Both the position numbers and the translations under genes were made by a program. The notes under the pieces were generated by a model. It saw nothing but the letters and a program-made list of their open reading frames with translations, was not told where the DNA came from and ran no database searches. Source: Mytilus edulis (Eukaryota). From it: a stretch of 64,000 nucleotides of DNA. The stretch's first letter is position 1; the number at the start of each line of letters is the position of its first letter. Shown piece after piece: positions 6,701 through 47,377 of this stretch. The DNA is taken from the NCBI RefSeq assembly GCF_963676685.1, contig NC_092350.1, forward strand, positions 73,780,001 through 73,844,000, written 5' to 3'.

Positions 6701-9700
6701 CTTGAACATTAAGAAATAGCTTATTTTGAATAACGGAATGCACTGCCTCAAGCCGTTAGCCCCTAAGCAAGGCAAAATAAATACAACACATTTAAGCTTA
6801 TTGATAAAGGAATAAATTGAGTATTAATGATATGTCCCGTAATGACAATTAGATAGGTTACGAAGGACATAATGTCCAAAACACGCGTGAAAATTTAAAA
6901 ATAGCCAATCTTGAATTATGAAATAGATATTTTGAATAAGGGAATTGACTGGTGCGACCCTTTAGTCCCTGATCATAGCTATACATTATACTCCTTTCGA
7001 AAGCTTATTAAAAGATGAACAAAAGGTATATAGTCGATATGTTCAGCAACGCATATTACAGAAGTAACGAAGGAATTAAACATCGAAATACGCATGAACA
7101 TTAAGAAATTGCTTATTTTGAATAACGGAATGGACTGCTGGAAGCCGTTAGCCCTTATCAAGGCAAAATTAATACAACAAATTATAGCTTATTGATAGTG
7201 AAATAAATTTAGTTTAAACAATATGTGCCGTAACAACCATTAGAGGGGTTACGGAGGACCTTATTTCCAAAATACGCGTGAAAATGAATAAATAGCCAAT
7301 TTTGAATAACGAAATTGATTATTGAATAGTTGAATGGACTGGTGCGACCCTTTAGTCCCTAATTATAGATATACATTATACCTCATTCAAAAGCTTATGA
7401 AGAGATGAACAAAAGGTATATAGTCGATATGTTCAGCAACGCATATTAGTGGAGTAAGAAGAAATTTAAAAACATCGAAATACGACTTGAACATTAAGAA
7501 ATAGCTTATTTTGAATAGCATTATGGACTGATGCAAGCCGTTAACCCCTAATCAAGGCAAAATTAATACAACAAATTCAAGCTTATTGAAAGAGGAATAA
7601 ATTGAGTATTAATGATATGTGCCGTAATGACCATTAGAGTGGTTAGGAAGGATCTAATGTCCAAAATACGCGTGAAAATTTAGAAATAGCCAATCTTGAA
7701 TTATGAAATGGATATTTTGAATAATGGAATTGACTGGTACGATCCTTTAGTCCCTAATCATAGATATACATTATACTTCATTCGAAAGCTTATTAAGAGA
7801 TGAACAAAAGGTATATAGTCGATATGTTCAGCAACGCATATTAGAGGAGTAACGAAGGAATTAAATATCGAAATACGCTTGAACATTGAGAAATAGCTTA
7901 TTTTGAACAACGGAATGGACTGTTACAAGCCGTTAGCCCTTATCAAGGCAAAATTAATAAACCAAATTAAAGATTATTGATAGAGGAATAAATTTAATTT
8001 AAACAATATGTGCCGTAATAACCATTAGAGAGCTTACGGAGGACCTTATTTTCAAAATACGCGTGAAAATTAAGAAATAGCCAATTTTGAATAACGAAAT
8101 TGATATTTTGAATAGTGCAATGGACTAGTGCGACCCTTAAGTCCCTAACTATAGATATACATTATACTTCATTCAAAAGCTTACAAAGAGATGAACAAAG
8201 GGTATATAGTCAATATGTTCAGCAACGCATATTAGAGGAGTAACGAAGGAATTAAACATCGAAATACGCTTCAACATTAAGAAATAGCTTATTTTGAATA
8301 ACGGAATGCACTGCTGCAAGCCGTTAGCCCCTAATCAAGGCAAAATAAATACAACACATTTAAGCTTATTGATAAAGGAATAAATTGAGTATTAATGATA
8401 TGTCCCGTAATGACAATTAGATAGGTTACGAAGGACCTAATGTCCAAAACACGCGTGAAAATTTAAAAATAGCCAATCTTGAATTATGAAATAGATATTT
8501 TGTATAAGGGAATTGACTGGTGCGACCCTTTAGTCCCTAATTATAGCTATACATTATACTCCTTTCGAAAGCTTATTAAAAGATGAACAAAAGGTATATA
8601 GTCGATATGTTCAGCAACGCATATTACAGAAGTAACGAAGGAATTAAACATCGAAATACGCATGAACATTAAGAAATTGCTTATTTTGAATAACGGAATG
8701 GACTGCTGGAAGCCGTTAGCCCTTATCAAGGCAAAATTAATACAACAAATTATAGCTTATTGATAGTGAAATAAATTTAGTTTAAACAATATGTGCCGTA
8801 ACAACCATTAGAGGGGTTACGGAGGACCTTATTTCCAAAATACGCGTGAAAATTAAGAAACAGCCAATTTTGAATAACGAAATTGATTATTGAATAGTGG
8901 AATGGACTGGTGCGACCCTTTAGTCCCTAATTATAGATATACATTATACCTCATTCAAAAGCTTATGAAGAGATGAACAAAAGGTATATAGTCGATATGT
9001 TCAGCAACGCATATTAGTGGAGTAAGAAGAAATTTAAAAACATCGAAATACGACTTGAACATTAAGAAATAGCTTATTTTGAATAGCATTATGGACTGAT
9101 GCAAGCCGTAAACCCCTAATCAAGGCAAAATTAATACAACAAATTCAAGCTTATTGAAAGAGGAATAAATTGAGTATTAATGATATGTGCCGTAATGACC
9201 ATTAGAGTGGTTAGGAAGGATCTAATGTCCAAAATACGCGTGAAAATTTAGAAATAGCCAATCTTGAATTATGAAATGGATATTTTGAATAATGGAATTG
9301 ACTGGTACGATCCTTTAGTCCCTAATCATAGATATACATTATACTTCATTCGAAAGCTTATTAAGAGATGAACAAAAGGTATATAGTCGATATGTTCAGC
9401 AACGCATATTAGAGGAGTAACGAAGGAATTAAATATCGAAATACGCTTGAACATTGAGAAATAGCTTATTTTGAACAACGGAATGGACTGTTACAAGCCG
9501 TTAGCCCTTATCAAGGCAAAATTAATAAACCAAATTAAAGATTATTGATAGAGGAATAAATTTAATTTAAACAATATGTGCCGTAATAACCATTAGAGGG
9601 GTTACGGAGGACCTTATTTCCAAAATACGCGTGAAAATTAAGAAATAGCCAATTTTGAATAACGAAATTGATATTTTGAATAGTGCAATGGACTAGTGCG

Positions 9701-10609
9701 ACCCTTAAGTCCCTAACTATAGATATACATTATACTTCATTCAAAAGCTTACAAAGAGATGAACAAAGGGTATATAGTCAATATGTTCAGCAACGCATAT
9801 TAGAGTAGTAACGAAGGAATTAAACATCGAAATACGTTTGAACATTAAGAAATAGCTTATTTTGAATAACGGAAAGCACTGCTGCAAGCCGTTAGCCCCT
9901 AATCAAGGCAAAATAAATACAACACATTTAAGCTTATTGATAAAGGAATAAATTGAGTATTAATGATATGTCCCGTAATGACAATTAGATAGGTTACGAA
10001 GGACCTAATGTCCAAAACACGCGTGAAAATTTAGAATTAGCCAATCTTGAATTATGAAATAGATATTTTGAATAAGGGAATTGACTGGTGCGACCCTTTA
10101 GTCCCTAATAATACCTATACATTATACTCCTTTCGAAAGCTTATTAAAAGATGAACAAAATGTATATAGTCGATATGTTCAGCAACGCATATTACAGAAG
10201 TAACGAAGGAATTAAACATCGAAATACGCATGAACATTCAGAAATTGCTTATTTTGAATAACGGAATGGACTGCTGGAAGCCGTTAGCCCTTATCAAGGC
10301 AAAATTAATACAACAAATTAAAGCTTATTGATAGAGGAATAAATTTAGTTTAAACAATATGTGCCGTAATAACCATTAGAGGGGTTACGGAGGACCTTAT
10401 TTCCAAAATACGCGTGAAAATTAAGAAATAGCCAATTTTGAATAACGAAATTAATTATTGAATAGTTGAATGGACTGGTGCGACCCTTTAGTCCCTAATT
10501 ATAGATATACATTATACCTCATTCAAAAGCTTATGAAGAAATGAACAAAAGATATATAGACGATATGTTCAGCAACGCATATTAGTGGAGTAAGAAGGAA
10601 TTTAAAAAC

Positions 10610-10792
10610 NNNNNNNNNNNNNNNNNNNNNNNNNNNNNNNNNNNNNNNNNNNNNNNNNNNNNNNNNNNNNNNNNNNNNNNNNNNNNNNNNNNNNNNNNNN
10701 NNNNNNNNNNNNNNNNNNNNNNNNNNNNNNNNNNNNNNNNNNNNNNNNNNNNNNNNNNNNNNNNNNNNNNNNNNNNNNNNNNNNNNNNNNNN
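10610..10792. other. Assembly gap (183 N)
   Basis: Run of N. Confidence 1.
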
Positions 10793-11770
10793 ACTCATTT
10801 GGATTACACCAATTTTCAATAAGGCTCTCTTAATACAATAATAATTACATAACAAATAAACAATGCATCAATAAAAATGGTAAATAAAGATTATGTACAA
10901 TTTAAAATACAATAAACAATTATGATATGGCATTACAGTAAAAATATGATGGTAATGTTAAAAGTACATAGATTTGTATATATGTTTAAATTCTGATACT
11001 GTATTTGATTTTTTTTATTGAATTAGGAAGAGCATTCCACACTTTTGGTCCATTGTACGAGAAACTAGACTTATACAACTCTGTATTTAGTTTTGGAATA
11101 ATAAAATTATCTGAGGATGAAAATCTCGTATTATTTTTTTGGTTTGCAGAAGCTGATACAATAAGACTGGACATATATTCTGGAGCTAAGCCATGTTTTG
11201 CCTTATACATTAGTAATGATTTGTGATAAAGTATTCTTTGTGTGATTGGCACAATGTTACATTCGTGAAATAATTCTCTTGAAGGTTTGGTGTAATCATG
11301 TTCGTCTAAAATTATTCTTGCTGCCCTTTTTTGCAGTTTTAGTAAACTATCTAATAGAAAGTTATTACAGGTTCCCCATATTGAACAACAATAATCTAAG
11401 TGAGGTAAAACGTAAGCGTTATAGTACATTTGTCTAGCTTTATGATTTAAATATTTCTTTATCCTTTTTAGTAAAGCTAAAGAAGAGTTAACTTTTTTGA
11501 TTATATAATCGATATGAGATGACCAAGATAGAGATGCATCAATAAAAACACCTAGAACTTTTTCACAGGTACTTTCTATAATTTGTTGTCCATTTAAAGC
11601 AATATTGATGTTTTCATTTGATGTAACGGAAAGCTTTTGTTTAGATCCAATGCATATAGCTTTCGTTTTAGATACATTTACAGCCATTTTATTGTCATCA
11701 CACCAGCGAAAAATATCTTGTTAAACCGTATTAAGTTTTTGACTGATGCAACTTTTCTTTTGTCCAATGA
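10793..11770 (-). mobile_element. 5'-truncated CR1/L2-group LINE (C-terminal RT region plus 3' UTR) inserted in the satellite
   Basis: ORF 10986-11687 has KTK..I, KVLGVFID..LSW..HI, PHLDYC..IWG, LQKRAARII and SFSY.GP..WN.LP. The satellite monomer broken before the gap resumes at ~11770. Confidence 0.9.
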
Positions 11771-14144
11771 CATTAAGAAATAGCTTATTTTGAATAGCAT
11801 TATGAACTGATGCAAGCCGTTAATCCCTAATCAAGGCAAAATTAATACAACAAATTCAAGCTTATTGAAAGAGGAATAAATTGAGTATTAATGATATATG
11901 CCGTAATGACCATTAGAGTGGTTAGGAAGGATCTAATGTCCAAAATACGCGTGAAAATTTAGAAATAGCCAATCTTGAATTATGAAATGGATATTTTGAA
12001 TAATGGAATTGACTGGTGCGATCCTTTAGTCCCTAATCATAGATATACATTATACTTCATTCGAAAGCTTATTAAGAGATGAACAAAAGGTATATAGTCG
12101 ATATGTTCAGCAACGCATATTAGAGGAGTAACGAAGGAATTAGATATCGAAATACGCTTGAACATTGAGAAATAGCTTATTTTGAACAACGGAATGGACT
12201 GTTACAAGCCGTTAGCCCTTATCAAGGCAAAATTAATAAACCAAATTAAAGATTATTGATAGAGGAATACATTTAATTTAAACAATATGTGCCATAATAA
12301 CCAGTAGAGGGGTTACGGAGGACCTTATTTCCAAAATACGCGTGAAAATTAAGAAATAGCCAATTTTGAATAACGAAATTGATATTTTGAATAGTGGAAT
12401 GGACTGGTGCGACCCTTAAGTCCCTTACTATGGATATACATTATACTACATTCAAAAGCTTATGAAGAGATAAACAAAAGGTATATAATCGATATGTTCA
12501 GCAACGCATATTAGATGAGTAACAAAGGAACTAAACATCGAAATTCGCTTGAACATTAAGAAATAGCTTATTTTGAATAACGGAATGGACTGCTGCAAGC
12601 CGTTAGCCCCTTATTTATGCAAAATTAATAACCAAATTAAAGCTTATTGATAAAGGAAAAAATTGAGTATTATTGATATGTGCCGTAATGACCATTAAAG
12701 TGGTGAGGAAGGACCTAATGTCCAAAATACGCATGATAGAGGAATAAACGGAGTATAAACGATATGTGCGACAATGACCATAAAGAAAATCAAGAAATAG
12801 CCAATTATGTATATGAAATGGATATTGATTTATAGCATGGACTGCTGCCACTATTTAGCCTCTAATTATAGATATGCCTTATAGCTCATTCGCAAGCTTA
12901 TTAAGAGAGGGAAAAAAATATAAAGTCGATATGTTCTGCAACACATATTAGAGGAATAACGAAGGATCTTAACATCGAAATTCGCTTGAACATTAAGAAA
13001 TAGCTTATTTTGAATAATGAAATGGACTGCTGCAAGCCCTCAGTCTTTATTAAGGCAACATGTATAGAGGAATAGAGTGACTTTAAATATATGTTCAGCA
13101 ATGCATATTAGAGGAGTAACGAAGGAATTAATCATCGAAATACCCTTGAACATTAAGAAATAGCTTATTTTGAATAACGGAATGGACAGAAAACCTGTCA
13201 GATAGAAAGATAGCTGTTTCGTCGATGTATTTCCACACCACCTATTATTCAGATTTTTAAAAGATATAAATATGCTAAAAGGGCATGTGTGTCAGAAGTC
13301 ACCTTAAAACAAATGTCTTAATATTAAAAGAAATAAGAAATGCATCTATTTGCTTTAATTATATTATAATTGTGCAAATCAGAAGATCTTTCTATCATGT
13401 CTATATAGCATGTTTTTGAATGATATTTCCCAGTTCAAAGTGTTTTATTAAAACCATAATTATATTTAACACCGAAACAAAATTTTAATTCCAAATTAAT
13501 ACTCGGATACAAACACTTTGGTTTGTTTTGAGACTAAGAAATGAGCGGGAAATGTAACTGTAAGCTATACATTATAAATCATCATGTGTTAACCCAACTA
13601 ACATGTTTATTTAGATAGTGTCGAAAAATGTTGCGACAGAAGCGGGAAATATAACTGTAAGCAATTATACATAACATGCTGATTACGCATTTCTCACGGA
13701 TATTTGATACAGGGAAGGTCGTTGTTTTATCATCTCAACCACAAGTACACATTCCATCGTCTAGTTTCCGCTGCAATTTATAATTAATCGACAGTGCTCG
13801 ACATCATTCTTAAGTATTTTACGTCACCGATAAAGGATTAGATATAAAAAAAAAAATCAAAAAATTATTAAATAAATATGATACTTTAAATCTTTTTCAT
13901 TAATGATATGATACTTTAAGTCTTTTTTCTAACTATTTTAACACATCGACCATCTTTTCATTTTTAAAAGAAACCATGTATATTGAAAAAAAGAATATGT
14001 TAGTTTGTTCCAGGGTGTTTATATCCTTCGATTTGGAAAACAAATGTTTGTTCCAAGCAAATATAACTATGCCCCCTTGAAAAGATGAATATTGGGGCTA
14101 AAAAATATTTAGTTTTTTATTTAGAAATTTTTTTTTATTATTTC

Positions 14145-17100
14145 ATGATTCAAAATAAGCTATTTTATAATTTTCACCCGTATTTTGATTTTTAGGTACT
14201 TCATAACTCCTCTAATATGCGTTGCGGAACATATTTACTATATACCTTTTGTTCATCTTTTAATAGGCTTTCGAATGAGGTAAAATGTATATTTGTATTT
14301 AGGGGCTGAAGTGTTGCAGCAATCCAATCCATTATTCAAATTATCCATTCAATTGTTCAAAATTGGCTATTTCTTAATTTTCACGCGTATTTTGGCATTT
14401 TGGTCCTATGTAACCGTGTGGGTTTTCTATCAATAGCTTTCACATGGAGTTTTTAAAGTTTTCCTAATTTAGGAACTGAGTCATTGCCTCTAAATAAAGT
14501 TGTTATTACTGACCAGTCACAGCAGTTCATTCTTTTATTAAAAAGAACTATGTCTTAATGTTTATATAAAAAAAGATGTGGTATGATTTCCAATGAGATA
14601 ACGGTCCATAAGAGATTTAAATGACACAGAATACGCATTATGTATATTTCGACATGTTAGATCCTTCGTTTCTCCTCTAATATGCGTTGCGGAACATACT
14701 AACTACATATATTTTGTTCTTCTATTGATAGGCTTTCGAATGAGGTATCATGTAAATATGTAATTATGGGTTGAAGGGTCACAGCAATCCATTGCATCAT
14801 TCAAAATTGGCTATTTCTTAATCTTCACGGTTATTTTAATTTGTGCTCCGTAATCTCGAGCTCCCTAATGGTCATTGCGGCACATATTATTTATAACCTA
14901 AACCATTTTGTTTCTCGGTCAATGGACTTTCAAATGGTTATAACGTTTTCCTTAATTAGGGGCTGACGTTCTCAGCAGTCCATTTCATTATTTAAAATAA
15001 GCTACATTTTTATTTCTTAATATTTACATGTACATTGTATTTCGATTTTTAGATCCTTCGTTACTCTCCGCGTTGCGTAGTATATACGATTTGTTCCTCT
15101 ATGATTAAGCTTTCGAATGAGCTTGAAGGTATTTCTGTAATTATAAGGCTGAAGGGTCACAGCAGTTCATGTCATTATTTCAAAATATTCATTCCGTTAT
15201 TCAAAATTGGCAATTTCTTTCTTTTCACGCATTTAAGTCATCCATTACCTCTCTGTCATTGAGGGACATATTATTTATACATTTTATTTCTCTATCAATT
15301 AGCTTTCACATGGTGTATAAAGTTTTCCTTCATAAGGGGCTTACGGGTCGCATCAGTCCATTCCATTATTCAGAGTAAGCTATTAATAAAGCCATAATGT
15401 TCACCCGTATTTCGATTTTTAGGTCCTTCATTACTCCTCTGATATACGCTACATTTGGTGACCTTCGGCTGTTGTGTTTTCTATGGTCGGGTTGTTTGAC
15501 ACATTCCCAATTTTATTGCAGATCATATTGACAAAATATCTTTTGTTCCTCTTGTAATAGGCTTTCAAATGAGATATAAAGTCATATGTAATTAGGGCTG
15601 AAGGTTCACATCAGTCCATTACATTATTAAAAATATCCATTCCAGTTTTCAAAATTGTTTATTTCTTAATTTTCACGCGTATTTTTGTATTTAGCTCCTC
15701 CGTTACACATCTAATTGTCATTGGGGCACATATTAGCTATAAACATTTTGTTCCTCTATTTATAACCTGGCAAATGGTGTATAAAGTTTCCCTTAAGTAG
15801 GAGCTTACGGGTTGCAGGAGTTAATTTCATGATTGAAAAAAAGCTATTTTATAATGTTCACCCGTATTTCGATTTTTAGGTACTTCATTTCTCCTCCAAT
15901 ATGCGTTGCGGAACATATTAACTATATACCTTTTGTTCCTCTATAATTAAGCTTTCGAATGAGGTTAAGGGTATTTCTGTAATTAGGGGCTGAAGGGTAA
16001 CAGTAGCTCATGTCATTATTTCAAAATATTCATTCCATTATTCAAAATTGGCAATTTCTTTCTTTTCACTCATTTAAGTCCTCCGTTACCTCTCTTATGG
16101 TCATTGAATGACGTATTACTAATACATTTTGTTTCTCTATCAATAAGCTTTCACGTAGTGTATAAAGTTTTCTTTTATAAGGGGCTGACAAGTCGCATCA
16201 GTCCATTCCATTATTCAGAGTAAGCTATTAATAAAACCATATAATGTTCACCCGTATTTCGATTTTTTAGGTCCTTCATTACTCCTCTGATATACGCTAC
16301 ATTGAAAACCTGTTGGTGACCTTCGGCTGTTGTGTTTTCTATGGTCGGGTTGTTTGACACATTCCCCATTTCCATTCTCAATTTTATTACAGATCATATT
16401 GACTAAATATATGTTGTTCCTCTTGTAGTAGGCTTTAATGAGATTTTAAAGTCATATGGAGTTAGGTCTGACGGTTCACATCAGTCCATTACAGTATTAA
16501 AAATATCCATTTCAATTTTTCAAAATTGTCTATTACTTAATATTTAGGTCCTCCATAACCCTTTTAATTGTCATTAGGGCAGTCCCCGCACATATATATT
16601 ATCTATAAACATTTTGTTCCTCTATTTATAACCTTGCAAATGGTGTATAAAGTTTTCCTTAATTATAGGGGCTTATGGGTTGCAGAAGTTCATTTCATGA
16701 TTTAAAATAAGCTATTTTATAATGTTCACCCGTATTTCGATTTTTTAAAGGTAGTTCTTTACTCCTCCAATATGCGTTGCGGAACATATTAACTATATAC
16801 CTTCTGTTACTCTTTTAATAGGCTTTCGAATGAGGTAAAATGTTTATTTGTAATTAGGATCTGAACTATCGAAGCAATCCATTCCATTATTAAAAATTGG
16901 CTTTTTTTATTTTCACGCGTATTTTGGCATTTTGGTCCCCTGTAACCCTATTAAAACGTCATTGTGGTTTCTCTATCAATAAACTGTCTCATTGTCTATA
17001 AAGTTTTCCCTAATTAGGGCATGAGTTACTGCCTCTGAATAACGATACTATTACTGACGAGTCGTAGCAGTTCATTATATTATTAAAAAAGCTATTTCAT

Positions 17101-17900
17101 AATGTTTATGTATATTTTGACATTAAGATCCTTTGTTACTCCTGTAATATGCGTTGCGGAACATATTAACTACATACATTTTGTTCCGCTATTAATAGGC
17201 TTTCTAATGAGGTATTATGTATATCTGTAATTAGGGGTTGAAGGGTCACAGTAATCCATTCCATGCGTACATGTTATATCTAAAATAAGCTACAGTTGTA
17301 TTTTTTAATGCTCGCATGTATTTCGATTTTTTGTCTTTCGTTACTCCCCCGCATTACATTTTAACTATACAGTTTTTGTTCCTCTATAATTAAGCTTTCG
17401 AATGAGGTTAAAGGTATTTCTTAAATTAGGGGCTGAAGGGTGGCAACAGATCATGACATTATTCATCCATGCTTTCATTCAAAATTCTTTCTTTTCACGC
17501 GTATTTTTGTCAATTAGATCCTCCGTAACCCTTCTAATGGTCATTGCGACAGCAATGAACTTTCAAATGGTCTCAACGTTTTCCTGAATTAAGGGATGAA
17601 ATGTCGCAGCAGTTCATTCCATCATTTAAGAGAATTTAATCTATTACTTAATGTTAATGCGTATTTCGATATGAAGGTATCGTTACTCCTCTAATATGCG
17701 TTGTGGAACACAGTAACTATGTACCTTTTTTCCTCAATTAATAAACTTTTGAATAAGATATATATAAAGTATATCTGTAATTAGGGACTGAAGTGTCGTT
17801 GCAGTCCATTCCATTACTTAAAATATCCATTCCATTATAATCAAAATTGGCCATTTCTTCCTTGTCTTGCGTGTTTTTTCCGTAACCCATGTAGCAATCA
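14145..17900 (-). repeat. Older, more diverged inverted array of the same satellite
   Basis: Repeated ctcctctaatatgcgttgcggaacatat and ttttcacgcgtatttt, the reverse complements of the forward-array motifs. Confidence 0.9.
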
Positions 17901-22831: not shown

Positions 22832-24139
22832 CTATAACTTGGAGGATGTAAGTAGATCCTTCAAGTTTTTGTTTCTTTTATATGCTATGATCGGAGGTTT
22901 TGGAAACATGGTTTTTGTGATATCATTTTGTTCAATTAGGTGCCAATGTTTTTTAATTGCTTTATTTAGTCCATTGAAGGAAGGATTAAATTTGGTGGCT
23001 AAAACTAATGGAGGCATTGCTCTTGTGTTTTTAAGCTTGTACCTTAGACAATCTTTTCTTTCCTTATGAAGTGCATTTGTTATAATGGGGTTGATATCTT
23101 TTTCCGAGTATCCCCTTTGGAGAAGTTTTGTTTTAAAAGTTTCAATTTCTTTTAGTGTATCTTTTTTGTTATTTGATGATCTCATAAAACGCAATATTTC
23201 CGCAGTAATAAATCCATTGAACACCGATGATGGGTGAGCTGACGTTCGTTCAAGATACTGAAAGTTATCAGTAGGTTTACGGTATAGTTTTACGTCTAAT
23301 ATATTATGATTAAGGAATCTGTTTCCTTTAAAAATTGTGACGTCAAGGAATTGAATGCTAGATTGTGATATTTCATGCGTAAATTTTATCAACGGGTGTA
23401 TATTATTAGCAATGTTAAATAATTCAGTAAGATTATCTTGACTAGAATTAAAAAGAATGAATCCATCATCTCTGTATATAGATAACAGTGCTAAGTTATC
23501 TTTAAAAGGAAATATATCAAGAATATTCGTTATAATCTCGAACATTCTTAAATCAGCCAGGGATGGGCTCATTGGGGCTCCCATTGGGATTCCACATGTC
23601 TGTCTGAATATCAAGTTATTAAATTCAAATTCATTATTGCATAGAATGAATTGAAGTATTCGTAAGAAGTCCTTTTTTGGTGGTAGAGGTATTTCATGTT
23701 TATTACGACATATTTTGTACCATGCTCTGTCAACTGCTTGCAGTATTTCATCGTGAGTTAAGGAATTGTACATACTAGTAATATCAAAAGTGCACATAAT
23801 TATGTCATCCGGTGCCCTTATTTGTTCTATTTTGTTGATAAATGAGGTCGTGTCTTGTGTATAAGTCCATAATTGGCTAACTACCGGTTTTAGGAAGTGG
23901 TCTATAAATTGACCAATTTTTTCAATTGGACTATTGCATAATGATACAATTGGTCTCCCAGGAATATCTATATTTTTAAGGAAATCTTTGTTAGTTTTGA
24001 TTTTTTCTCTATCTTCATGGTTAATTTTGTGAATTTTTGGCAACATATAGAGTCGTCCCACTCGTATATTGGCATTATTGGCTAGGTATTTATATGTTAT
24101 ATCGTCGATATATTCTTTCTTGTGTAGTTGTTTGATCAT
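22832..24139 (-). CDS. PLE reverse transcriptase (frame open back to ~24245); no C-terminal GIY-YIG
   Basis: LYMLPKIHK, GRPIVS, FDITSMY, Q..GIPMG, YRDDGF, FLDV, YRKPT..YL..S.HP, AYKRNKNLKDLL then stop. Confidence 0.9.
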   Translation of the reverse strand: MIKQLHKKEYIDDITYKYLANNANIRVGRLYMLPKIHKINHEDREKIKTNKDFLKNIDIPGRPIVSLCNSPIEKIGQFIDHFLKPVVSQLWTYTQDTTSFINKIEQIRAPDDIIMCTFDITSMYNSLTHDEILQAVDRAWYKICRNKHEIPLPPKKDFLRILQFILCNNEFEFNNLIFRQTCGIPMGAPMSPSLADLRMFEIITNILDIFPFKDNLALLSIYRDDGFILFNSSQDNLTELFNIANNIHPLIKFTHEISQSSIQFLDVTIFKGNRFLNHNILDVKLYRKPTDNFQYLERTSAHPSSVFNGFITAEILRFMRSSNNKKDTLKEIETFKTKLLQRGYSEKDINPIITNALHKERKDCLRYKLKNTRAMPPLVLATKFNPSFNGLNKAIKKHWHLIEQNDITKTMFPKPPIIAYKRNKNLKDLLTSSKL

Positions 24140-24369
24140 TTTTTGAATAGTTTCGGATATTTTGTTCGTATTAAATTCATGAATTTGCTCATAGCATATA
24201 CTGTTGTTCAGGAAATTCAGTGTTTGTTTAATATATAGATTTTTAAATGAGATATAACGAGTCCAGAACCAATCCTATATATACCAATACATATTCTTAG
24301 TATTTGACTTTATTTCATAATCTATTTTGTTCAATTCAATATTTTATCATAAATATTTGTTGTTTTTTA

Positions 24370-36236: not shown

Positions 36237-37199
36237 TTATAGTGTTTTTTGCTGTATAGTGTTTTTGAATCTACCAGACTCCGTTAAATAATTTTCCAGA
36301 TGGCACAATATCTCATTTCGATTGTCTCTATTAATGTCTTCTTCATCGATTCCTAATAAGGTGTCTAAATCCATGTGTATATTTCCTGTAATAAAGTAAA
36401 TAGATGTTCTCATTCTCTCTCTAGCCTCCTCATAGTTAGAACAATGTAAAAGATAGTGTTCTACAGTTTCTGGCTCTCCACAGGAACAGTTTTTGTCTGA
36501 TGATGGTATAATTTTGGATTTATAATCATTTAGATCACAATAACCTGTTCTCAAACTAGTAGTAATTGAAAACGACCATTTGGATGGTAAATCTTTTGGT
36601 ATTTTCTGACAGACATTTTGATGATAATTGTAATAATTTCTGCCACGTTGACTTGATTCCCATTGGTTCTGCCATTTTCTTAAAACACTTTCTCTTGCTG
36701 CACGTTTTATATCCTGCCTGGTTACTTCTGATGGTTCTTCTATTTTTTCAGCTTCTATAGCTCCTTTTTTGGCCAGTGAATCAGCAATGTCATTTCCTTG
36801 GATATCAGCATGACCAGGTGTCCATTCAAAATTTAATGGAATTCCATTCATCTTTAATACTTTCATGTTTTTCTTAATTTCTCTTATGACTTTGATGTAA
36901 TTCTCTGATTTCCAGTTTAAAGTTAAAATTCCAATTGAGGTCTGACTATCTGAAAAAAGTGTAATTGAGTCTGTGTTTTGTCTGTTTTCTGATATTAAAA
37001 AGTGGTCAACAACAAGTTTAATGGCGATCAGTTCTCCGAGTAGTATTGATCCTTTCTTGGATACAGCTTTACTAATTTCAATTTGTGGTTGATTATTTGA
37101 TGGAAAGATGACAGCACCTGCTCCTACAGGGCCAGGACTACCAAGACAGGACCCATCAGTAAATGCTATACATGAATTTGCAGGAAGATGACTTAGTTC
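36237..37199 (-). mobile_element. 5'-truncated LINE with RNase H and C-terminal CCHC knuckle (I/Nimb/Proto1-type)
   Basis: Frame open from 37199: AFTDGSCLGSPGPVGAG, GELIAI, FSDSQ, WTPGHADIQGNDIADSLAK, CSCGEPETVEHYLLHC. Confidence 0.9.
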
Positions 37200-37265
37200 T
37201 GTCGGAAGGCAATATAATCGCTATGCGGATAATTTGGGCAGTTTTTGTTTAAAATTAATTATGTG

Positions 37266-37752: not shown

Positions 37753-38035
37753 TTGTTGTTCCCAATTATTGCTAAAAAATGCCAATTTTCTAATGCTCAT
37801 TTCGATCCTGATTTCCTATTGTCTAAAAACATTCTAGAACTTCACAAAATACCACTTCCGGCATCCATTGCTTTGTGTACATTGTTAATGTTAATTATCA
37901 CTGAACTAGTATATATGTAAGCTTCAAAGCTATGTCCGGCCTCAAATCTATGTCCTTTCAGCAAATCTATGTCCTTTTTAATATTGCGTCATAGACGTTC
38001 CAAATATTCATCCTTTACTGTCTTTTTAGTAAATA

Positions 38036-38698
38036 TATAACCAAGGCCAGTACATTGCACGTTCCTGACCTGGTTATTCATCTTGCTAGGTTGGGGGAAC
38101 TAGCTGGTAGCTTTGATATGAATACATGTCAACGTAACACAGATTCAAAGTTCAATATATAATGTTTATTAAATCAGCATTCAGTATAATAGTTTATCAA
38201 TCACAATAATCACAATAATCACATAAGTTCATGAGACATAATAAAACAGTATGTCTAATAAGTCTATAACACAAGTGTCCAATACGTGAATATATGGCAA
38301 GTGTCCCTAACTACCTGGTCAACTAATATATATTGTTTCATTATTCAATTTACATAACATTAATACTCAAAATAGCTAATTTACATAATAATGCTTATTT
38401 ATCTATATTCCCAAATATCAAGTCTTTGTGACATAACTTAAATCATCTTAAAAAGTAAGAAATCCCTTTTGTATATATAGCACTTCTTTAATCCTTAATT
38501 CTCTATTGTCATTTAAGCCTCAGGGGATTACATAATAATTTGCTTTACACTTATCTAAAATTGTGAAGATTTATATTAACTATTTATCAAGTAAATTATT
38601 TCTTAAGCTAGTGCTAAATATCTTAACTAATACTAAATTATAACAATTATTCAAATTCCACATTTTAACATTCTTGCATCCAAAATATACTGGTTATA
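38036..38698 (-). repeat. 3' LTR
   Basis: TATAACCA...TGGTTATA terminal inverted repeat; adjacent PPT AAGGGAAGGG (38699-38708, minus strand). Confidence 0.95.
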
Positions 38699-40670
38699 CC
38701 CTTCCCTTCGTCGCCAAGATTGCTCCTGCAATCTTCAGTTAAAATACAAAATGCATCATATGAAAAAAATGATTTATGTACACATATAATTTTTATATAG
38801 CAACAATTGAATAACTGATTCCTGTCAATAAAATATTACAATACATTGCGAAATAATTGAATCACTGATTCCTGTCAATAAGATATAACAATATATACAA
38901 AAAAAAAATTATGGTGAAAACATTAATTAATTTACTGATTCCTGTAATAAAACATTACTAAATATATATACATGTACATGTTCTTGGTTTGGGGAATGGT
39001 CAAGTTTAGATTGTCCATATCAGGGAAGTTCTCAGAAGTTCACTAATATTGACATGTCCAACTCTCACATACTTAATGACAATGAGCTCATTGCATACTT
39101 CATGAAGTATTTCTAGGTGCATAAAGGGGCATAACAATAGCAATATATAGCTGAAATATAAGATTATTAATATATTATCCATATCAGTCATCATCTGCAA
39201 GTTAAACACATAATTATTCAAATCATATCATCTTCTTATATAATGAACATAAAACATATTTAGACATATACATTTTTATATGATTAATCTGTGAATAATC
39301 TGGAAAGAAAATACATAATTAAAACAACAATAAAACAATAGTAATGATCTCTATCAAAACAAGCAAGCATTTAAATAAGCGAATATAAGTGTCTTCTGTA
39401 CACATATTCAATATAGACAATTAATGTTCAACAGTACAATCTTCACATTTTTCACCATTGGTAGTCAAATAAAAGTTACTAGTTTTCAACAATATTGTTT
39501 ATACATCATGATACATGTCCACCTGGTTTCTTCTATTGTTTGATCGTCATAGTAATTTTCCAGATATTATTATAAACTTCATATCACATTGTCTTTTACT
39601 CTTCATCAATATTCATGTTAGCTTAATAAAATGTTACTTCTGGTCACAAATCTCTGCTAATATTAAAATGTCACTTCAGGTCACAAATCTCTGCTAATAT
39701 TAAAATGTCACTTCGGGTCACAATAAATCTCTGCTAATAAGTTTTATAATTTCAAATAAATTGTCTTTCATTAAGTTTAAATGCACTATTTGGTCACTTC
39801 TATGGTCCACCATTTCTTCATTTTGTGGGTTCACCATTGGTAGGTCACATCTATGGGTCCACCATACATCTATGGGTCCACCAATTCTTTATCTGTGTGT
39901 CCACCATTTCTGCATTTTATGGGTCCACCATTGGTCCTTTACTTCATCAATGTAAGTGCAACCAATATTATAATCATACATGACACCAATTAACCGTAAT
40001 TTATCTCTTATCATAATTAATTCATTTGAATTGGGGAATTTTTATTTATTTATCTCTTAAATATTCACTAGAATACTACAATTTTAGGTCAGTAACTGAA
40101 CTACCTATTTATAAACATTACAATATATAACATACTACATGTAAGAATTTCTAATTCTCTTCCTTTTATATTTTATCTTAATTTCCTATACTTTCTCATC
40201 TTATTTCTAATTATTTAGCAACTGTACGCCAGTTTATTTTGTACTTTCTTATTTAGTACTCCTTAATTATTTTATCTCTTTAGTAAAAAATCTTTAAGTC
40301 ATAATAATAAAAAAACACAGCTCAAAAATAGTGATGCCTATATACAATGTATGTATAGGGACCACTTGATAGTTCTATTTGTATCATTGATAAAGTACAT
40401 TTTGTAAAATCTGAAGTAAATTTGGTTTAAAAGTACATCAGTAGATGTGCCGTCCACCTGCAATATTTAAGGATCTAATAGTAAGAACTACTAATGTAAT
40501 CAATACATTTGTCCAGCAGGATTAAATTAACAGACACTATAACTAGTCTGAATATTGTGTACTTTAACCAGAAATTCAGAACAAAAATAACATTTTTTTC
40601 AACGATACAAAAGAATATTGTCACAATGCATTTATGTATGCTCATAACATGTATAATACTACTTGAATAT

Positions 40671-43600
40671 CTAGTTATAACATCTCAACCACTCATTTTC
40701 ATATTTATTTTGGAAAATTTTAAGAAGTCCTGGGGGACAAGTTTCAAACGGTACCCACTCTGGATCATAAATATGTTTTTCCTCATAGTGTATGAAACAT
40801 TTTGGGACATTATTTTCTATTTTAAAATGTGTAATGTGAGAGCCTGTAACAAAACATGCTGGTCCCATATCTTTTGTTTGTGAATTGCCTGTAAGGGTCA
40901 GCATAATGTTACAAAACTGGTCACCATAAAAATAATCAAGCAAATTTGTAAAAGCATGCTGATCTTCCCCATTTACTCTGTTTAAAGGTTGATAATGTGA
41001 TATTCTATTATTTCTCAATATGGTTTTGACAAAAAATCTGTTATTTTCCAGTTTAACAGCTTGCACTGGAAATTTATCCCAATTTATTTTCGGTCTTTGT
41101 TTATATTTTACATCATTGTTTTGGTCTATTGCAGTTACATTTTGTGGTTCATTTGACGGTTCAAAAAATTTATGTTTGTTTTCTAGTAATGGTCTTTTTC
41201 TCTTTTTACCAGTATGCGTTCTGTTTTCATGAAATTCTCTTCTCATATTCTCTGGGATTTTATCTTGGTGTACCCATTCTGTTTTTGACATGTTTTTAAT
41301 TTTTATTTTGTAGCATAGTTTCTTCTTTACCCATGCCGATGATATAATCTTTTCAACATCATCAGGTGTAATTTGTATTTCTGTTGTAGCTTGTTGAGCA
41401 GTTTTATTTGTATTTTGCTTTTCATTTAAATTGCCAGGAAGCACTTTTTTACTTTGCTTTGAATTCTTAGATTGATTATTTTTGTTTTGATTATTCCTGG
41501 GTGCATTTTTGGGTTGAGAATTAGACATTGTGTCTGGTGTTTGATTCTCTGTGTTTTCATTCTGGACTTGTTGATTTTCATCTTCATCATCCTCATCTTC
41601 TTCAAATAGATCATCATTATCATCTAGGAGGTAGTCAGGGCGGTCTGTTTTACTGTTGAATACTTTCAGACGACTTGCATTAACTAATTTCTTTGAGATT
41701 TTGTTATCGCTGTCCCTTCTTAGCTTAAAAGTATTACAGTCTGGGGGTCCAAGATTTGTTATTGTAAATGGGCCTGTCCACCTAACTTTTAATTTTGGAC
41801 TTTCACCTTTTTTAACCTTTTTACAAAATAGCATTACTTTGTCACCAGGTAAATATGTGGGTTTTACTGCTCTTTTGTCATGCTGTGTTTTGTATTTTGC
41901 TTGTGCTCTTTTCGTGTTTTCTGCAGCAACATCCCTTGTTAATAGGAGGTCCTTAATAAATTTATTGAGGTATTCTCTATGGTTTTTAGGCAATGTTGAC
42001 TTTGGAATTAAGGCAACATCAATAGGTGCTCTCATTTCTTGTCCAAAGAGAAGGTGAAAAGGTGAGTATTGAGTAGACTGAGTAGCTGGTGTCATTCTAT
42101 AAGCCATCATTATAGGTGCTATATAGTTTGGCCAATCTGTCTGTTTTTCCAGTTGAGCTCTCAAAGATTGGACAATGAATGAGTTCATCCGTTCACATGC
42201 TGCATTTGTTTGTGGATGATATGCACTTGTATAGTGGCGTTTGATTTGGAGAAGCTCACATAAAGCTGCAACAAGCTTTGAAAGAAAATTGGCACCTTGA
42301 TCAGATACAATACAGCGTGGTGCACCAAAACGGGCAATTATCTCTCTAAACAGGATGTTGGCTACTTCTGTTGCTTCTTGTGTTCTCATGGGAAAAGCTT
42401 CACACCATTTGGATCCGCTATCAACCACCAACAATAAATAGCGATATTTTTCTGGAGTCTCTGGGAGTTCTAAAATATCCATGTGCCATCTTGAAAAAAC
42501 TTCTTCTATTGGCATTGGTTTCAATGGCAATGGATGGCTGTGTGTATTTCTTTTAGATCTTTGGCAGATTTCACAGGTCTTAATGTATGTCTTGATATCT
42601 GTATACATGTTTGGCCAGTAATATCGTTGACGTACAGCTTCATATGTCCTTTCTTCTCCTTGGTGACATCCAACAATATTGTCATGGAAAGCTTCTAAAA
42701 CCTCCTTCCGTAGGGTTCTTGGTATTGCTAGCTGCTTAACCATGTTTTGTCCTTTTGGTAGGCTTCTAGATCTTGCATTAAAAAAATGATAAAGTATACC
42801 ATTATCAATTTCGTAATGGAAGGCTTTTGCATCCAGTTGTCTAGCTTTCTGTCTTTCCTCAGGTACTTGGCCATCTAATTTGTAATTAAAAATTTCAACA
42901 AAATCTGGGCAATGTCTTTGAAGGTGCCGAAATGTTTTACGCTTCTTAAACTGTTCTGGGTCAATGTTTTCTAATGTTTCATCATCCTCATTACCAGTAT
43001 CTGTTATTGTAAGAATGTTGGGTTGCTGTTCGTCATCTCCTTTGTAATCAAATGTTATGATTTCGTACTTCTTATTGCTCATGGCTGCAACTGTTTGTTC
43101 AATTTCATTCTGCGGAAAATATTCTGGACCTATCTTTTCATACTCTCTTCTTGACAGGGCATCTGCATTATTTTTCTTCCCAGGTCTATGCATTATTTCG
43201 AAGTCATATCCTTGAAGTTCAAGTGCCCATCTACCTAGTCTCCCTTGTATATTTTTAATTGTATCTATCCAACGAACAGTTATATTATCTGTATAAACTG
43301 TAAATTTGTGTGAGGCCAAATATGGATTAAAATGTTTTATTCCCTCTTTAAGTGCTAACCCTTCTTTTTCGTTTATGTGCCATTTTTGTTCATTTTTATT
43401 CAGTGATCTACCACCATAGGCTACGACATGTTCAAGTTTTGTGTTTGGATTTAATTGTCCAAGGACATAGCCAATAGCATAATCAGAAGCGTCCACTGAC
43501 AACACAAATGGTTTCTCAAAGTCTGGGAACACTAAGATTGGAGCTGAGACAAGGCTGTGCTTCAATGTTTCGAAAGCTGCTTGACAATCTTGTGTCCAGA

Positions 43601-45359
43601 TGTATTTCTTATTTTTCTGAGTTAATTGTGTAAGTGGAGTTACAATTTTTGAGTAATTGTGCACAAATTTTCTGTAGTAATTGCATAATCCTAAGAAACT
43701 ACGTAATTGTTTGATATTTTTAGGTATTGGGTATGTTTGCACAGCAGATGTTTTTTCAGGGTTTACTTTAATACCATTTTTGGACAAAATATGACCTAAA
43801 TAATGTACTTCTTCTTTTGCAAAATGACATTTTGTTGGATTTAGTGTAAGATTTGCTTGTTTTAGTTTGTCAAAAACTAATTTTAAATGTTTCAAATGTT
43901 CTTCAAAATTTTTACTAAAAATCAAAATGTCGTCTATGTATACTAAAGCAACTTTCCAGTTCAATTCTTTTAAAACTTTTGTCATGAGCATTTGAAAAGC
44001 CATTGGTGCATTTGTTAACCCGAAACTCATTCTTTTGAATTGGTAAATACCTTGATGTGTTACAAATGCAGATTTGTGTTTTGTTTCTGGATCTAAGGGT
44101 GTCTGAAAAAATCCACTCATGAGATCCAGTACTGAATATATTACAGCTTTTGAATTAGCAACTGTGTCAAAAACATCATCTATCCTAGGAATACTAAATT
44201 TTGCCCTTAATGTGCATTTGTTAAGCCTACGATAGTCTACCGCGAACCTATACTCTTGTTTTGCATCCATATTACTTTTCTTTTTGCGAACTAATACAAT
44301 TGGGGATGACCATGGAGAGTTTGATTCCTCTATAATGTCATTTTTTAACATTATATCAATATGTTTTTCTGTTTCTTCCCTCATTTGTGGTGTTTGCCTG
44401 TAGGGCATTGATTGTACAGGTGGTGCATTACCTGTATCAATTCTGTGATAGTGGTAACTAGTTTTACCTAACTCTGAAATGTCTTTAGCAAAAACGTTTC
44501 TATTCCTTGTTAAGAGTTCAGTTAACTGTTTCCTTTGATTTGCATTTAAGTTTTCATTCATTTTTATTCCCAACTCTTTTTCAACATTTTGATATTTATT
44601 AACTTTAATAGATTTATCTATTGAATCATTATCATTTAAGGCAAAAATACCATTTTTGTCTATTTCAAAAGCCTTGGCTATTTTCTTATTCCTATATAAT
44701 TTTATACTTAATCCAGTAGGATTTAGAATTCTGTACAAAGCCTTTCCATTTTGTACATTTACTACTACTTTTGAACCAACTAAATTTTTGATATCATTTG
44801 AAAAGTTTGGTTCAAGAATTACTGTACTGTTATTGCGATGCCTAACAGAAAGCCTAACAGGTATAATAACTTCACAGTGTGGGGGAATAACTTCTACTGC
44901 TATAGTTTTAACATGTGCATAATGTTCATCCATAGTCTCTATATTATTTAAAGGTACATTCAATAGATTTTCTTGAATTGCTAAGGTATTATTTTCAAAA
45001 TTTATGTGAGCTTTATTAGCTTTAAGAAAGTCTATTCCTAAAATTATATTAAAGGTCAAATTCTCAAGCACTGTTAATTCTTGATATATAATTAAATCAT
45101 CTATATTTAATTCAACATCTACTTTTCCTAAAATTGGATAGCTCATTCCACAAGCAGTAAAAATTCCAGATTGTGTACTTTTTTGTATTTTGATGTTTTT
45201 CAAACATTTTTGTAAACATTTTAATGATATACAAGAAATTGAAGCACCTGTATCAACTAACGAATCAACTGTTTTATTACCTAATTGCAAATGTATAATA
45301 TTTTTAGAAAGGGGGGCTATTAGAGCTAAGGAGGGGTCAGGATAAACTGAATTAGACAT
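40671..45359 (-). CDS. pol: Pol polyprotein: protease, RT, RNase H, integrase, C-terminal extension
   Basis: LVDTGAS; WSSPIVLV, DYRRLN, MSFGL, YIDD; VDAS, EKEGLA, YTDN, ADALSR; H..H..C..C, WHMDI, VSDQG, ERMN, WTGPF. Confidence 0.97.
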   Translation of the reverse strand: MSNSVYPDPSLALIAPLSKNIIHLQLGNKTVDSLVDTGASISCISLKCLQKCLKNIKIQKSTQSGIFTACGMSYPILGKVDVELNIDDLIIYQELTVLENLTFNIILGIDFLKANKAHINFENNTLAIQENLLNVPLNNIETMDEHYAHVKTIAVEVIPPHCEVIIPVRLSVRHRNNSTVILEPNFSNDIKNLVGSKVVVNVQNGKALYRILNPTGLSIKLYRNKKIAKAFEIDKNGIFALNDNDSIDKSIKVNKYQNVEKELGIKMNENLNANQRKQLTELLTRNRNVFAKDISELGKTSYHYHRIDTGNAPPVQSMPYRQTPQMREETEKHIDIMLKNDIIEESNSPWSSPIVLVRKKKSNMDAKQEYRFAVDYRRLNKCTLRAKFSIPRIDDVFDTVANSKAVIYSVLDLMSGFFQTPLDPETKHKSAFVTHQGIYQFKRMSFGLTNAPMAFQMLMTKVLKELNWKVALVYIDDILIFSKNFEEHLKHLKLVFDKLKQANLTLNPTKCHFAKEEVHYLGHILSKNGIKVNPEKTSAVQTYPIPKNIKQLRSFLGLCNYYRKFVHNYSKIVTPLTQLTQKNKKYIWTQDCQAAFETLKHSLVSAPILVFPDFEKPFVLSVDASDYAIGYVLGQLNPNTKLEHVVAYGGRSLNKNEQKWHINEKEGLALKEGIKHFNPYLASHKFTVYTDNITVRWIDTIKNIQGRLGRWALELQGYDFEIMHRPGKKNNADALSRREYEKIGPEYFPQNEIEQTVAAMSNKKYEIITFDYKGDDEQQPNILTITDTGNEDDETLENIDPEQFKKRKTFRHLQRHCPDFVEIFNYKLDGQVPEERQKARQLDAKAFHYEIDNGILYHFFNARSRSLPKGQNMVKQLAIPRTLRKEVLEAFHDNIVGCHQGEERTYEAVRQRYYWPNMYTDIKTYIKTCEICQRSKRNTHSHPLPLKPMPIEEVFSRWHMDILELPETPEKYRYLLLVVDSGSKWCEAFPMRTQEATEVANILFREIIARFGAPRCIVSDQGANFLSKLVAALCELLQIKRHYTSAYHPQTNAACERMNSFIVQSLRAQLEKQTDWPNYIAPIMMAYRMTPATQSTQYSPFHLLFGQEMRAPIDVALIPKSTLPKNHREYLNKFIKDLLLTRDVAAENTKRAQAKYKTQHDKRAVKPTYLPGDKVMLFCKKVKKGESPKLKVRWTGPFTITNLGPPDCNTFKLRRDSDNKISKKLVNASRLKVFNSKTDRPDYLLDDNDDLFEEDEDDEDENQQVQNENTENQTPDTMSNSQPKNAPRNNQNKNNQSKNSKQSKKVLPGNLNEKQNTNKTAQQATTEIQITPDDVEKIISSAWVKKKLCYKIKIKNMSKTEWVHQDKIPENMRREFHENRTHTGKKRKRPLLENKHKFFEPSNEPQNVTAIDQNNDVKYKQRPKINWDKFPVQAVKLENNRFFVKTILRNNRISHYQPLNRVNGEDQHAFTNLLDYFYGDQFCNIMLTLTGNSQTKDMGPACFVTGSHITHFKIENNVPKCFIHYEEKHIYDPEWVPFETCPPGLLKIFQNKYENEWLRCYN

Positions 45360-45594
45360 GTTGAGTCTTTTTTTAGAGGGAAAATCCTATTAATAGATCT
45401 TGACAACTTTAATTACAAAATAAAGTAAAATTTAAAGATTTGGTGTCATATAAGATCATAAATAAAAGGTTGACTCACCTCTGCACACTCAGGAAAATGC
45501 ACTGTTTCCTATATGGAGATATGCTGACTCTTCACAATGTCTTCAGGTATTCAGGTTTGCATCCTACGTGTATCCCTCCTTAGTACCGGAAAGC

Positions 45595-45609
45595 TGGGTC
45601 ACTCCGCCA
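45595..45609 (-). promoter_or_regulatory. Putative primer binding site TGGCGGAGTGACCCA
   Basis: Starts with TGG, 2 nt after the LTR; cognate tRNA not identified. Confidence 0.65.
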
Positions 45610-45611
45610 CG

Positions 45612-46951
45612 TATAACCAAGGCCAGTACATTGCACGTTCCTGACCTGGTTATTCATCTTGCTAGGTTGGGGGAACTAGCTGGTAGCTTTGATATGAATA
45701 CATGTCAACGTAACACAGATTCAAAGTTCAATATATAATGTTTATTAAATCAGCATTCAGTATAATAGTTTATCAATCACAATAATCACAATAATCACAT
45801 AAGTTCATGAGACATAATAAAACAGTATGTCTAATAAGTCTATAACACAAGTGTCCAATACGTGAATATATGGCAAGTGTCCCTAACTACCTGGTCAACT
45901 AATATATATTGTTTCATTATTCAATTTACATAACATTAATACTCAAAATAGCTAATTTACATAATAATGCTTATTTATCTATATTCCCAAATATCAAGTC
46001 TTTGTGACATAACTTAAATCATCTTAAAAAGTAAGAAATCCCTTTTGTATATATAGCACTTCTTTAATCCTTAATTCTCTATTGTCATTTAAGCCTCAGG
46101 GGATTACATAATAATTTGCTTTACACTTATCTAAAATTGTGAAGATTTATATTAACTATTTATCAAGTAAATTATTTCTTAAGCTAGTGCTAAATATCTT
46201 AACTAATACTAAATTATAACAATTATTCAAATTCCACATTTTAACATTCTTGCATCCAAAATATACTGGTTATACCTCCTCCACCACGTATAACCAAGGC
46301 CAGTACATTGCACGTTCCTGACCTGGTTATTCATCTTGCTAGGTTGGGGGAACTAGCTGGTAGCTTTGATATGAATACATGTCAACGTAACACAGATTCA
46401 AAGTTCAATATATAATGTTTATTAAATCAGCATTCAGTATAATAGTTTATCAATCACAATAATCACAATAATCACATAAGTTCATGAGACATAATAAAAC
46501 AGTATGTCTAATAAGTCTATAACACAAGTGTCCAATACGTGAATATATGGCAAGTGTCCCTAACTACCTGGTCAACTAATATATATTGTTTCATTATTCA
46601 ATTTACATAACATTAATACTCAAAATAGCTAATTTACATAATAATGCTTATTTATCTATATTCCCAAATATCAAGTCTTTGTGACATAACTTAAATCATC
46701 TTAAAAAGTAAGAAATCCCTTTTGTATATATAGCACTTCTTTAATCCTTAATTCTCTATTGTCATTTAAGCCTCAGGGGATTACATAATAATTTGCTTTA
46801 CACTTATCTAAAATTGTGAAGATTTATATTAACTATTTATCAAGTAAATTATTTCTTAAGCTAGTGCTAAATATCTTAACTAATACTAAATTATAACAAT
46901 TATTCAAATTCCACATTTTAACATTCTTGCATCCAAAGTATACTGGTTATA
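45612..46951 (-). repeat. Tandem pair of 5' LTRs separated by a 14 bp spacer
   Basis: 45612-46274 and 46289-46951; spacer reads CGTGGTGGAGGAGG on the minus strand. Confidence 0.92.
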
Positions 46952-47377
46952 AATAAATATGTGCAGTTTCATTTTTGAAAGCGGCATACAATATTAACAC
47001 ATAAGTCATGTAAAGATTTTAACCACATACATGGAGAAATGACTTAATAAAAAAAGTCATAAGACCGTACTTTAAACAATATTATAAATACCAGCGAAAT
47101 AATTTAGCCAGATTTACTTAACCATAAACTATATTTGAGCCCTTGCACACACATGGAGAACACATACCAACTTAATATTAAATTAAGGGAAATGACTTAT
47201 ATTATTGGAGGTTTCTCAACATCTTAGGAACGAACGAAAATTGCCCTAACTTAACGTTACTTGCCATAACGAGAAAAGAGGCAGAAATAATTTATTTAAT
47301 AATATTGGACTATCGGCTGTGTTCTTCTTCCTTTTGAAATGTCTTTTATTTAAAAAAGAATATATACATGCTGTATT

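Follow-up and report, generated by a model that had tools for sequence, protein, structure and literature searches.

We describe a long terminal repeat (LTR) retrotransposon of the mussel Mytilus edulis that carries an intact pol gene and no gag, and a short companion element, G4, to which it is physically joined at five genomic loci. The retrotransposon lies on the minus strand of a 64,000-nucleotide stretch of contig NC_092350.1 (assembly GCF_963676685.1, positions 73,780,001 to 73,844,000), hereafter the window; all its coordinates below refer to that stretch, and its family is called A. The loss of gag from A is inherited and shared with its nearest relatives, and the structure of the A–G4 composites indicates that the two elements were reverse-transcribed and integrated together. 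We see an even chance that they form a two-part system, in which Pol comes from A and a substitute for Gag from G4.

The pol gene of the window element is a single open reading frame (ORF) of 1562 amino acids, running from an ATG at 45359 to a stop at 40671 (40671..45359, minus strand). Protease (amino acids 22–120), reverse transcriptase (RT; 360–525), RNase H (588–718) and integrase (879–1049) all exceed their Pfam cut-offs, the catalytic motifs are in place, and a low-complexity linker and a C-terminal tail follow. This order (PR-RT-RH-IN) is that of Ty3/Gypsy elements (Metaviridae), as is the set of LTRs, primer-binding site (PBS), polypurine tract (PPT) and short target-site duplication (TSD), with ends that read TA...TA, not TG...CA. 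The capsid gag that an autonomous Ty3/Gypsy element carries in cis is missing: Pfam detected no gag family in the Pol ORF, the leader (45360..45593) holds no frame above 56 amino acids, and the 1970-nt 3′ region holds no stop-to-stop frame above 83 amino acids on either strand. The original prediction, made from the sequence alone, had described an intact Pol without gag, about 235 bp between PBS and ATG, a protease motif about 35 amino acids into Pol and a 3′ region devoid of gag- or env-sized ORFs, and all of this was borne out. The PBS starts at 45609, 250 nt ahead of the ATG, with ~234 nt between its end and the ATG, and the protease motif starts at amino acid 35. The best named Pol homologue is from Mytilus (82%). 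In Foldseek searches the Pol tail (40674..41372, minus strand) matched chromo and chromoshadow domains (probability 0.85–1.00, no E below 0.001). It is predicted to fold as three chromo-like units rather than as a capsid or an RNA chaperone, also contains a basic motif, and was set aside as the seat of a gag function.

The element is one of many. The same leader–pol junction, whose recurrence at several insertion sites had been proposed as a check, was present in 20 of 20 candidate loci: 12 pol-type copies, seven non-coding derivatives that depart from pol after ~20 codons, and one diverged relic. The distance from PBS to ATG was 241–266 nt in nine other copies measured (five pol-type, four non-coding). 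Among 13 other two-LTR copies, eight have an exact 4-bp TSD of their own, one matches in three of four letters and four have none. LTR pairs are at least 99% alike in 11 of these 13, whereas LTRs of other copies are merely 86–95% like those of the window, so several A lineages moved recently. Intact Pol frames of 1561–1565 amino acids occur in five copies. The ratio of nonsynonymous to synonymous substitution (dN/dS) of the Pol enzyme core was 0.055–0.13 in nine of ten pairs, and 0.39 in a near-identical pair, which indicates that Pol is held by purifying selection. Twelve loci, each set off by a different 4-bp TSD, have this junction in common, and dN/dS of Pol is near 0.1; gag loss in A is therefore inherited and not a local deletion. 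The gag-less form is therefore the form that replicates, as had been proposed, and in lacking gag, keeping pol intact and having replicated in that state A resembles Tos17 and BARE-2.

Deletion of gag after insertion, or misassembly, was the pair of alternatives that the original prediction had itself raised, and neither holds: the window copy is not the sole gag-less one, and the independent copies, with their shared junction and narrow range of PBS-to-ATG distances, refute both. For 16 of 20 rows, half or more of the words recur in other sequencing runs, taken from two organisms, which also counts against these explanations, and with no evidence found on their side we give them almost no weight.

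The non-coding derivatives fit the description of large retrotransposon derivatives (LARDs): they are multi-copy (seven loci), exceed 4 kb (4.2–4.7 kb, longest frame 121 amino acids in four copies measured) and retain LTR, PBS and PPT. The four A copies lacking a TSD (L052, L057, L067 and L069) keep dinucleotides that normally lie outside the LTR, GG on the left or CG on the right, which suggests integrase-independent capture of blunt cDNA.

Gag loss extends beyond A. An RT search, in which 150 of 2276 candidates were scored, gave 14 matches of at least 95% and a next best of 62%, and no closer Pol accompanied by gag was found among those scored. The three nearest families are also pol-only with young LTRs (22 loci read: 7 of B, 9 of C and 6 of D), and B and C have non-coding derivatives as well; the next relatives carry ordinary capsid gags. 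A careful tree of 29 rows, built on integrase together with RT–RNase H and leaving out P0028 for its coverage, unites A, B, C and D with seven homologues from other genomes (support 99/96), and a quick 90-row tree agrees (L206 and L217 dropped; the first 70 homologues entered). The protease motif lies 34–55 amino acids from the start in 25 of 29 clade homologues, which we infer from their sequences to be gag-less too. A W-x-C motif ~45 amino acids before the protease motif opens 21 of the 29 (N-termini of P0002–P0027); it is found in families B and C and not in A or D. The 606-amino-acid N-terminus of P0024 was considered as a clade Gag and rejected, as it matches no capsid family and P0024 falls outside the clade.

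The companion elements emerged from a loose LTR-end and PBS pattern (121 matches against 41 in a control; of the 100 listed, 37 were fetched, and 22 of these proved unrelated), which led to a locus, L290, where a family-C 5′ LTR is followed by a short element with a different 3′ LTR and a zinc-knuckle ORF. A genome search with the protein of this ORF scored 150 of 197 candidates and gave 127 matches. The 44 companion loci read are mostly LTR elements of 1.7–2.6 kb, with LTR pairs mostly 97–100% alike, short TSDs, mostly a tRNA-Ala-type PBS, a short leader and a single ORF of ~265–350 amino acids. By our grouping they fall into about ten families, G1–G10.

The G proteins begin with two zinc fingers and further comprise a basic helix, a conserved short motif and an extended coiled coil. 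Pfam recognised the knuckle alone; neither Retrotrans_gag nor Ty3_capsid exceeded its cut-off in any of seven G proteins (one sub-threshold score, E 0.42), under a control that detected three of four true gags. A structural model showed two fingers and long helices (mean pLDDT 78.6, pTM 0.39), with no Foldseek match at E 0.001. Searches of the ESM Atlas gave best scores of 0.83 and 0.77 and no lead. Sequence matches in the PDB were lentiviral nucleocapsids and generic coiled coils, and with E values of 1e-7 to 1e-12 the finger pair matched the nucleocapsid at the C-terminus of the nearest true gags. Since the fingers match the nucleocapsid of true gags while neither Pfam nor the model shows a capsid, the G protein is Gag-derived yet capsid-free. 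Its ORF has dN/dS below 1 in 24 of 25 pairs. At a cut-off of E 1e-10 the G profile retrieved 196 protein clusters, some of which match by the knuckle alone; the family motif is present in 84 of the 150 listed, none of these 84 above 500 amino acids. Named G-type proteins come from Mytilus (85–98% to the companion protein), Pinctada and Tegillarca; Pinctada has a Pol of the clade as well, so that both protein types are known from it by name. The protein tree is poorly resolved, a candidate ancestral element carrying both pol and G (L293) proved to be a jumble of fragments, and the window itself holds no match to the G profile.

We then screened all fetched loci for contacts against a library of 22 elements that included seven gag-bearing relatives. 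Family A adjoins G4 at five loci and no other family of the library. On C6 at 77.0 Mb, an entire reversed G4 is joined through its exact left end into the pol of A; on C1 at 81.14 Mb, G4 terminates in an A LTR; on C4 at 64.06 Mb, an entire A switches at the start of its PBS to the 3′ half of G4, across a microhomology of 3 nt; and on C12 at 68.84 Mb, a reversed G4 end caps the 3′ part of A. Each of these four composites is bounded by one 4-bp TSD (GATT, GTAC, CTAT and GATC, respectively), where A contributes one of the two ends and G4 the other, with a chance expectation of ~0.6% each. At the fifth locus (C1, 76.08 Mb) a G4 LTR is set by its exact left end in the U5 of A, and its other end is lost. 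The contacts involve 5 of ~29 G4 loci (42 matches, all 40 candidates scored) and 5 of ~36 A loci read; three split G4 loci were checked as further contacts, and none qualified (0/3). Because each composite is bounded by a single TSD drawn from one A end and one G4 end, the joints were made on cDNA before integration, a single integration event using both types of end. The family-C element at L290 is paired with G1 in a similar way, a 4-bp repeat lying one base beyond either end, and appears to represent the same pairing in a sister family.

Two readings of different reach follow from these data. In the narrower one, to which we give the even chance stated above, the G protein would serve A in trans. 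The broader reading, somewhat less probable and built on an analogy, is that the clade may have split into two obligate halves, abandoned its capsid and kept no complete member, G packaging both RNAs as a ribonucleoprotein. In LINEs, retroelement RNA is packaged in the absence of a capsid by ORF1p, an RNA-binding protein with a coiled coil. ORF1p serves here as a working analogy for G, with no match in sequence or fold; the RNA-binding part of G is Gag-derived and resides on a separate LTR element. On the narrower reading, A RNA would be translated from its own ATG into Pol, and G4 RNA into an RNA chaperone of nucleocapsid type whose coiled coil lets it multimerise. The G4 protein would bring the RNAs of A and G4 together with Pol and tRNA-Ala in a particle that has no capsid shell, replacing Gag as a scaffold and in primer annealing, dimerisation and strand transfer, steps for which Ty3 needs its nucleocapsid according to the available text of PMC5371799. 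The RT of A would copy both RNAs, template switches yielding chimeras, and its integrase would insert A and G4 alike, with the non-coding derivatives travelling along.

Several observations weigh against this picture. The chimeras attest co-replication and are silent on who helps whom, and elements that have no ORF at all, the non-coding derivatives of A, B and C, are mobile too, passengers being common here. The LTR interiors of A and G4 have a similarity score inside the shuffled range, and selection on the G4 ORF is the weakest among G families (0.46–0.69 in five pairs and 1.28 in one with two silent changes). A G6 LTR adjoins a gag-bearing family at L215, and the ends and PPT of G5 are as similar to a complete gag–pol family as to A. 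Neither A nor G4 holds a capsid domain, and known LTR retrotransposons reverse-transcribe within a capsid (PMC3977881). In four raw-read RNA runs, reads for both A and G4 were few and mostly of what is likely the antisense strand. The search for a capsid donor covered 135 of 436 gag candidates, with 20 unexplained loci fetched, and 40 of 85 LTR candidates, and is incomplete to that extent.

No frame in the leader, the 3′ region or the non-coding derivatives is long enough to hide a gag. All 15 exact LTR-end and PBS sites in the genome are pol-type (nine) or non-coding (six), so that a gag-only element with the LTR of A was absent from them, as it was from 18 PPT-pattern sites, of which those not known before were read. 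The original prediction had suggested a bipartite gag-only/pol-only system and a classification of all loci sharing this LTR; the pol-only class was recovered and a partner encoding only a Gag-derived protein is physically tied to A, but none of the 15 exact sites is gag-only, and the partner lacks both A's LTR and a capsid domain. As possible capsid partners, we retrieved 20 gag loci for which no RT neighbour was listed, and none carried the non-coding sequence of A. Two of them, L204 and L213, are gag-only elements (TR-GAG-like) of two other families, with LTR identity of 99.8–99.9%.

The complete gag–pol relatives show 50–59% RT identity, and one has a tRNA-Ala PBS; in the loci screened they make no contact and share no cis sequence with A. 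In four gag-bearing relatives (L148, L149, L153 and L202) gag and pol occupy one frame split by a single stop, and a third long ORF in the env position, 745 amino acids in L148, has no Pfam match. Such relatives could nonetheless supply the capsid in a three-part arrangement, comparable to that of Tos17 or BARE-2, in which a complete gag–pol(–env) element gives the shell, A its own Pol and G4 an adaptor for its own RNA, the chimeras arising in common particles. Young complete relatives with capsid Gag do exist in this genome, two of them with TA...TA ends; the G6 contact involves one of them; and the helper proposed for Tos17 is just 64% similar in protein (PMC3977881). Against this stand the contact counts of A, zero with the seven gag-bearing relatives and five with G4, the lack of similarity between the non-coding parts of A and those relatives, and the disappearance of gag from an entire deep clade rather than a single family. 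We regard hitch-hiking of this kind as unlikely, though a serious contender.

A further possibility, less probable again, is that A needs no Gag at all, relying on host RNA chaperones and on Pol acting in cis, and that G4 and the non-coding derivatives are its parasites, G recruiting Pol only to its own RNA. The strong conservation of Pol in cis and its clade-specific extended tail would suit such self-sufficiency, selection on G ORFs requires only a benefit to G, and G families appear tied to complete families too. However, the nucleocapsid fingers absent from A are just what G retains, such a chaperone is required in Ty3 for strand transfer and for annealing of the primer (available text of PMC5371799), and the A tail is predicted to be chromo-like, neither RNA chaperone nor capsid. 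The two-part reading of A and G4 is the one that we favour.

The window element also preserves traces of its own reverse transcription. It has three LTRs of 663 bp, not two. LTR-B (the 5′ LTR, 45612..46274, termini TATAACC...GGTTATA) and LTR-C (the 3′ LTR, 38036..38698) are identical, and LTR-A (46289..46951) sits head-to-tail upstream. The near-identity of the LTRs and the single difference noted earlier were correct; the difference, though, falls in LTR-A, which had gone unmentioned. The TSD, TATT on the minus strand, is intact, as had been stated (46952..46955 on the 5′ side and 38032..38035 on the 3′ side, its 4-bp length set by other copies). LTR-A and LTR-B are separated by 14 nt (46275..46288) consisting of CG, 10 nt that exactly complement the 3′ end of tRNA-Ala(AGC), and GG; across family copies, CG follows every 5′ LTR and GG precedes every 3′ LTR. 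From this junction and its matching flanking dinucleotides, LTR-A is likely a plus-strand strong-stop DNA that was extended into the primer and joined to the left end of the cDNA. The junction shows directly that the gag-less form was reverse-transcribed not long ago. The PBS itself (45594..45609) matches the tRNA-Ala(AGC) 3′ end imperfectly, with two mismatches and one bulge, and shows a mismatch and a bulge where the 10 nt of the junction match exactly. In Ty3, dead-end plus-strand strong-stop DNAs build up and the PBS is not restored from the tRNA, as described in the available text of PMC5371799.

A U5 motif (45669..45681) complements, with one bulge, the 5′ end of tRNA-Ala(AGC), which suggests that it is the second half of a bipartite PBS. 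The same motif occurs in families D and G5 and in one gag-bearing family; it had been considered as a partner signal common to A and G5 and was dropped, being complementary to tRNA-Ala and present in several families. The genome has 94 matches to the tRNA-Ala(AGC) pattern, 93 of them in one tandem array of ~1370-bp units (G000:C11:65.26-65.43 Mb). The remaining internal parts of the window element are an AT-rich 3′ region without long ORFs, which the non-coding derivatives keep (38713..40670), and the PPT (38699..38712). The splice donor AG|GTGAGT reported near 45479 on the minus strand is present in the leader, its GT at 45478, and recurs in sister family D; no splice joint at it was seen in the four RNA runs, where depth was mostly below 5.

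Among described elements, the nearest to A is Tos17 of rice. Tos17 and RN304, also of rice, are Copia elements that lack gag cleanly, retain an intact pol ORF along with LTRs, PBS and PPT, are mobile and require Gag in trans (PMC3977881). A differs in being a Ty3/Gypsy element of an animal and in belonging to a gag-less clade of four divergent families and homologues from other genomes, and its physically linked partner is neither complete nor endowed with a capsid domain. BARE-2 of barley is likewise mobile with an intact pol and defective Gag, but has a close complete partner, BARE-1, whereas A has none above 62% RT identity among candidates scored and no gag remnant (available portions of PMC4350172 and PMC9744471). 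The G elements recall the plant TR-GAGs, short, young LTR elements with one Gag-derived ORF under selection, and share with them a length below 4 kb, a single ORF, the absence of pol and at least two copies. TR-GAGs are, however, defined by a capsid domain, which G proteins lack, since they consist only of an initial pair of nucleocapsid fingers plus an extended coiled coil (PMC4350172, as available). RLG_Quinta, Sabrina and WHAM of wheat can also be likened to G elements, but the wheat systems include a complete autonomous member, unlike A and G (PMC11302176, PMC9744471). In the portions available, BARE-2, TR-GAG and wheat are thus plant two- or three-component systems with a complete member or a capsid-coding Gag (PMC4350172, PMC9744471, PMC11302176). 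Yeast Ty3 shares with A the PR-RT-RH-IN order, a bipartite PBS that is not restored from the tRNA and dead-end strong-stop DNAs, and differs in encoding CA-SP-NC in cis; Troyka differs in its ends and TSD (available text of PMC5371799 and PMC12440569). The available text of a mollusc Gypsy survey classifies elements by RT (MolGy series) and does not mention gag-less clades (PMC6238403). No description of a gag-less clade or of companion elements turned up in full-text literature; subscription papers, Repbase, Dfam and supplements may hold individual families.

Other repeats accompany these elements. Tandem arrays sharing an LTR occur among non-coding B and C derivatives and G1 (L280:518-6670, L292:327-5969, L308/L309), and broken pieces of gag, pol, env and G crowd together at G000:C11:41-53 Mb, perhaps a piRNA-cluster-like locus. 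The window contains a large array of a 391-bp repeat with related dispersed pieces (4084–17878), a 480-amino-acid RT frame flanked by 624-bp direct repeats (22832–24274, minus strand), which we take to be Penelope-like, and a 327-amino-acid RNase H frame (36237–37220, minus strand).

Gag-less LTR elements have been known as single plant families leaning on a complete helper; here the loss of gag marks a whole animal clade, and the sole element physically tied to A encodes a capsid-less Gag derivative. Composites with a single TSD offer a simple genomic means of pairing helpers with passengers. Even on the weaker readings, the G elements are an abundant and apparently undescribed class of coding companions, now annotated merely as CCHC-type proteins. 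If the pairing is mutual, A and G4 would make up a segmented retrotransposon, in which nature itself tests whether reverse transcription of the LTR type can do without a capsid; if the pair is obligate and capsid-free, it would be a new kind of retroelement.

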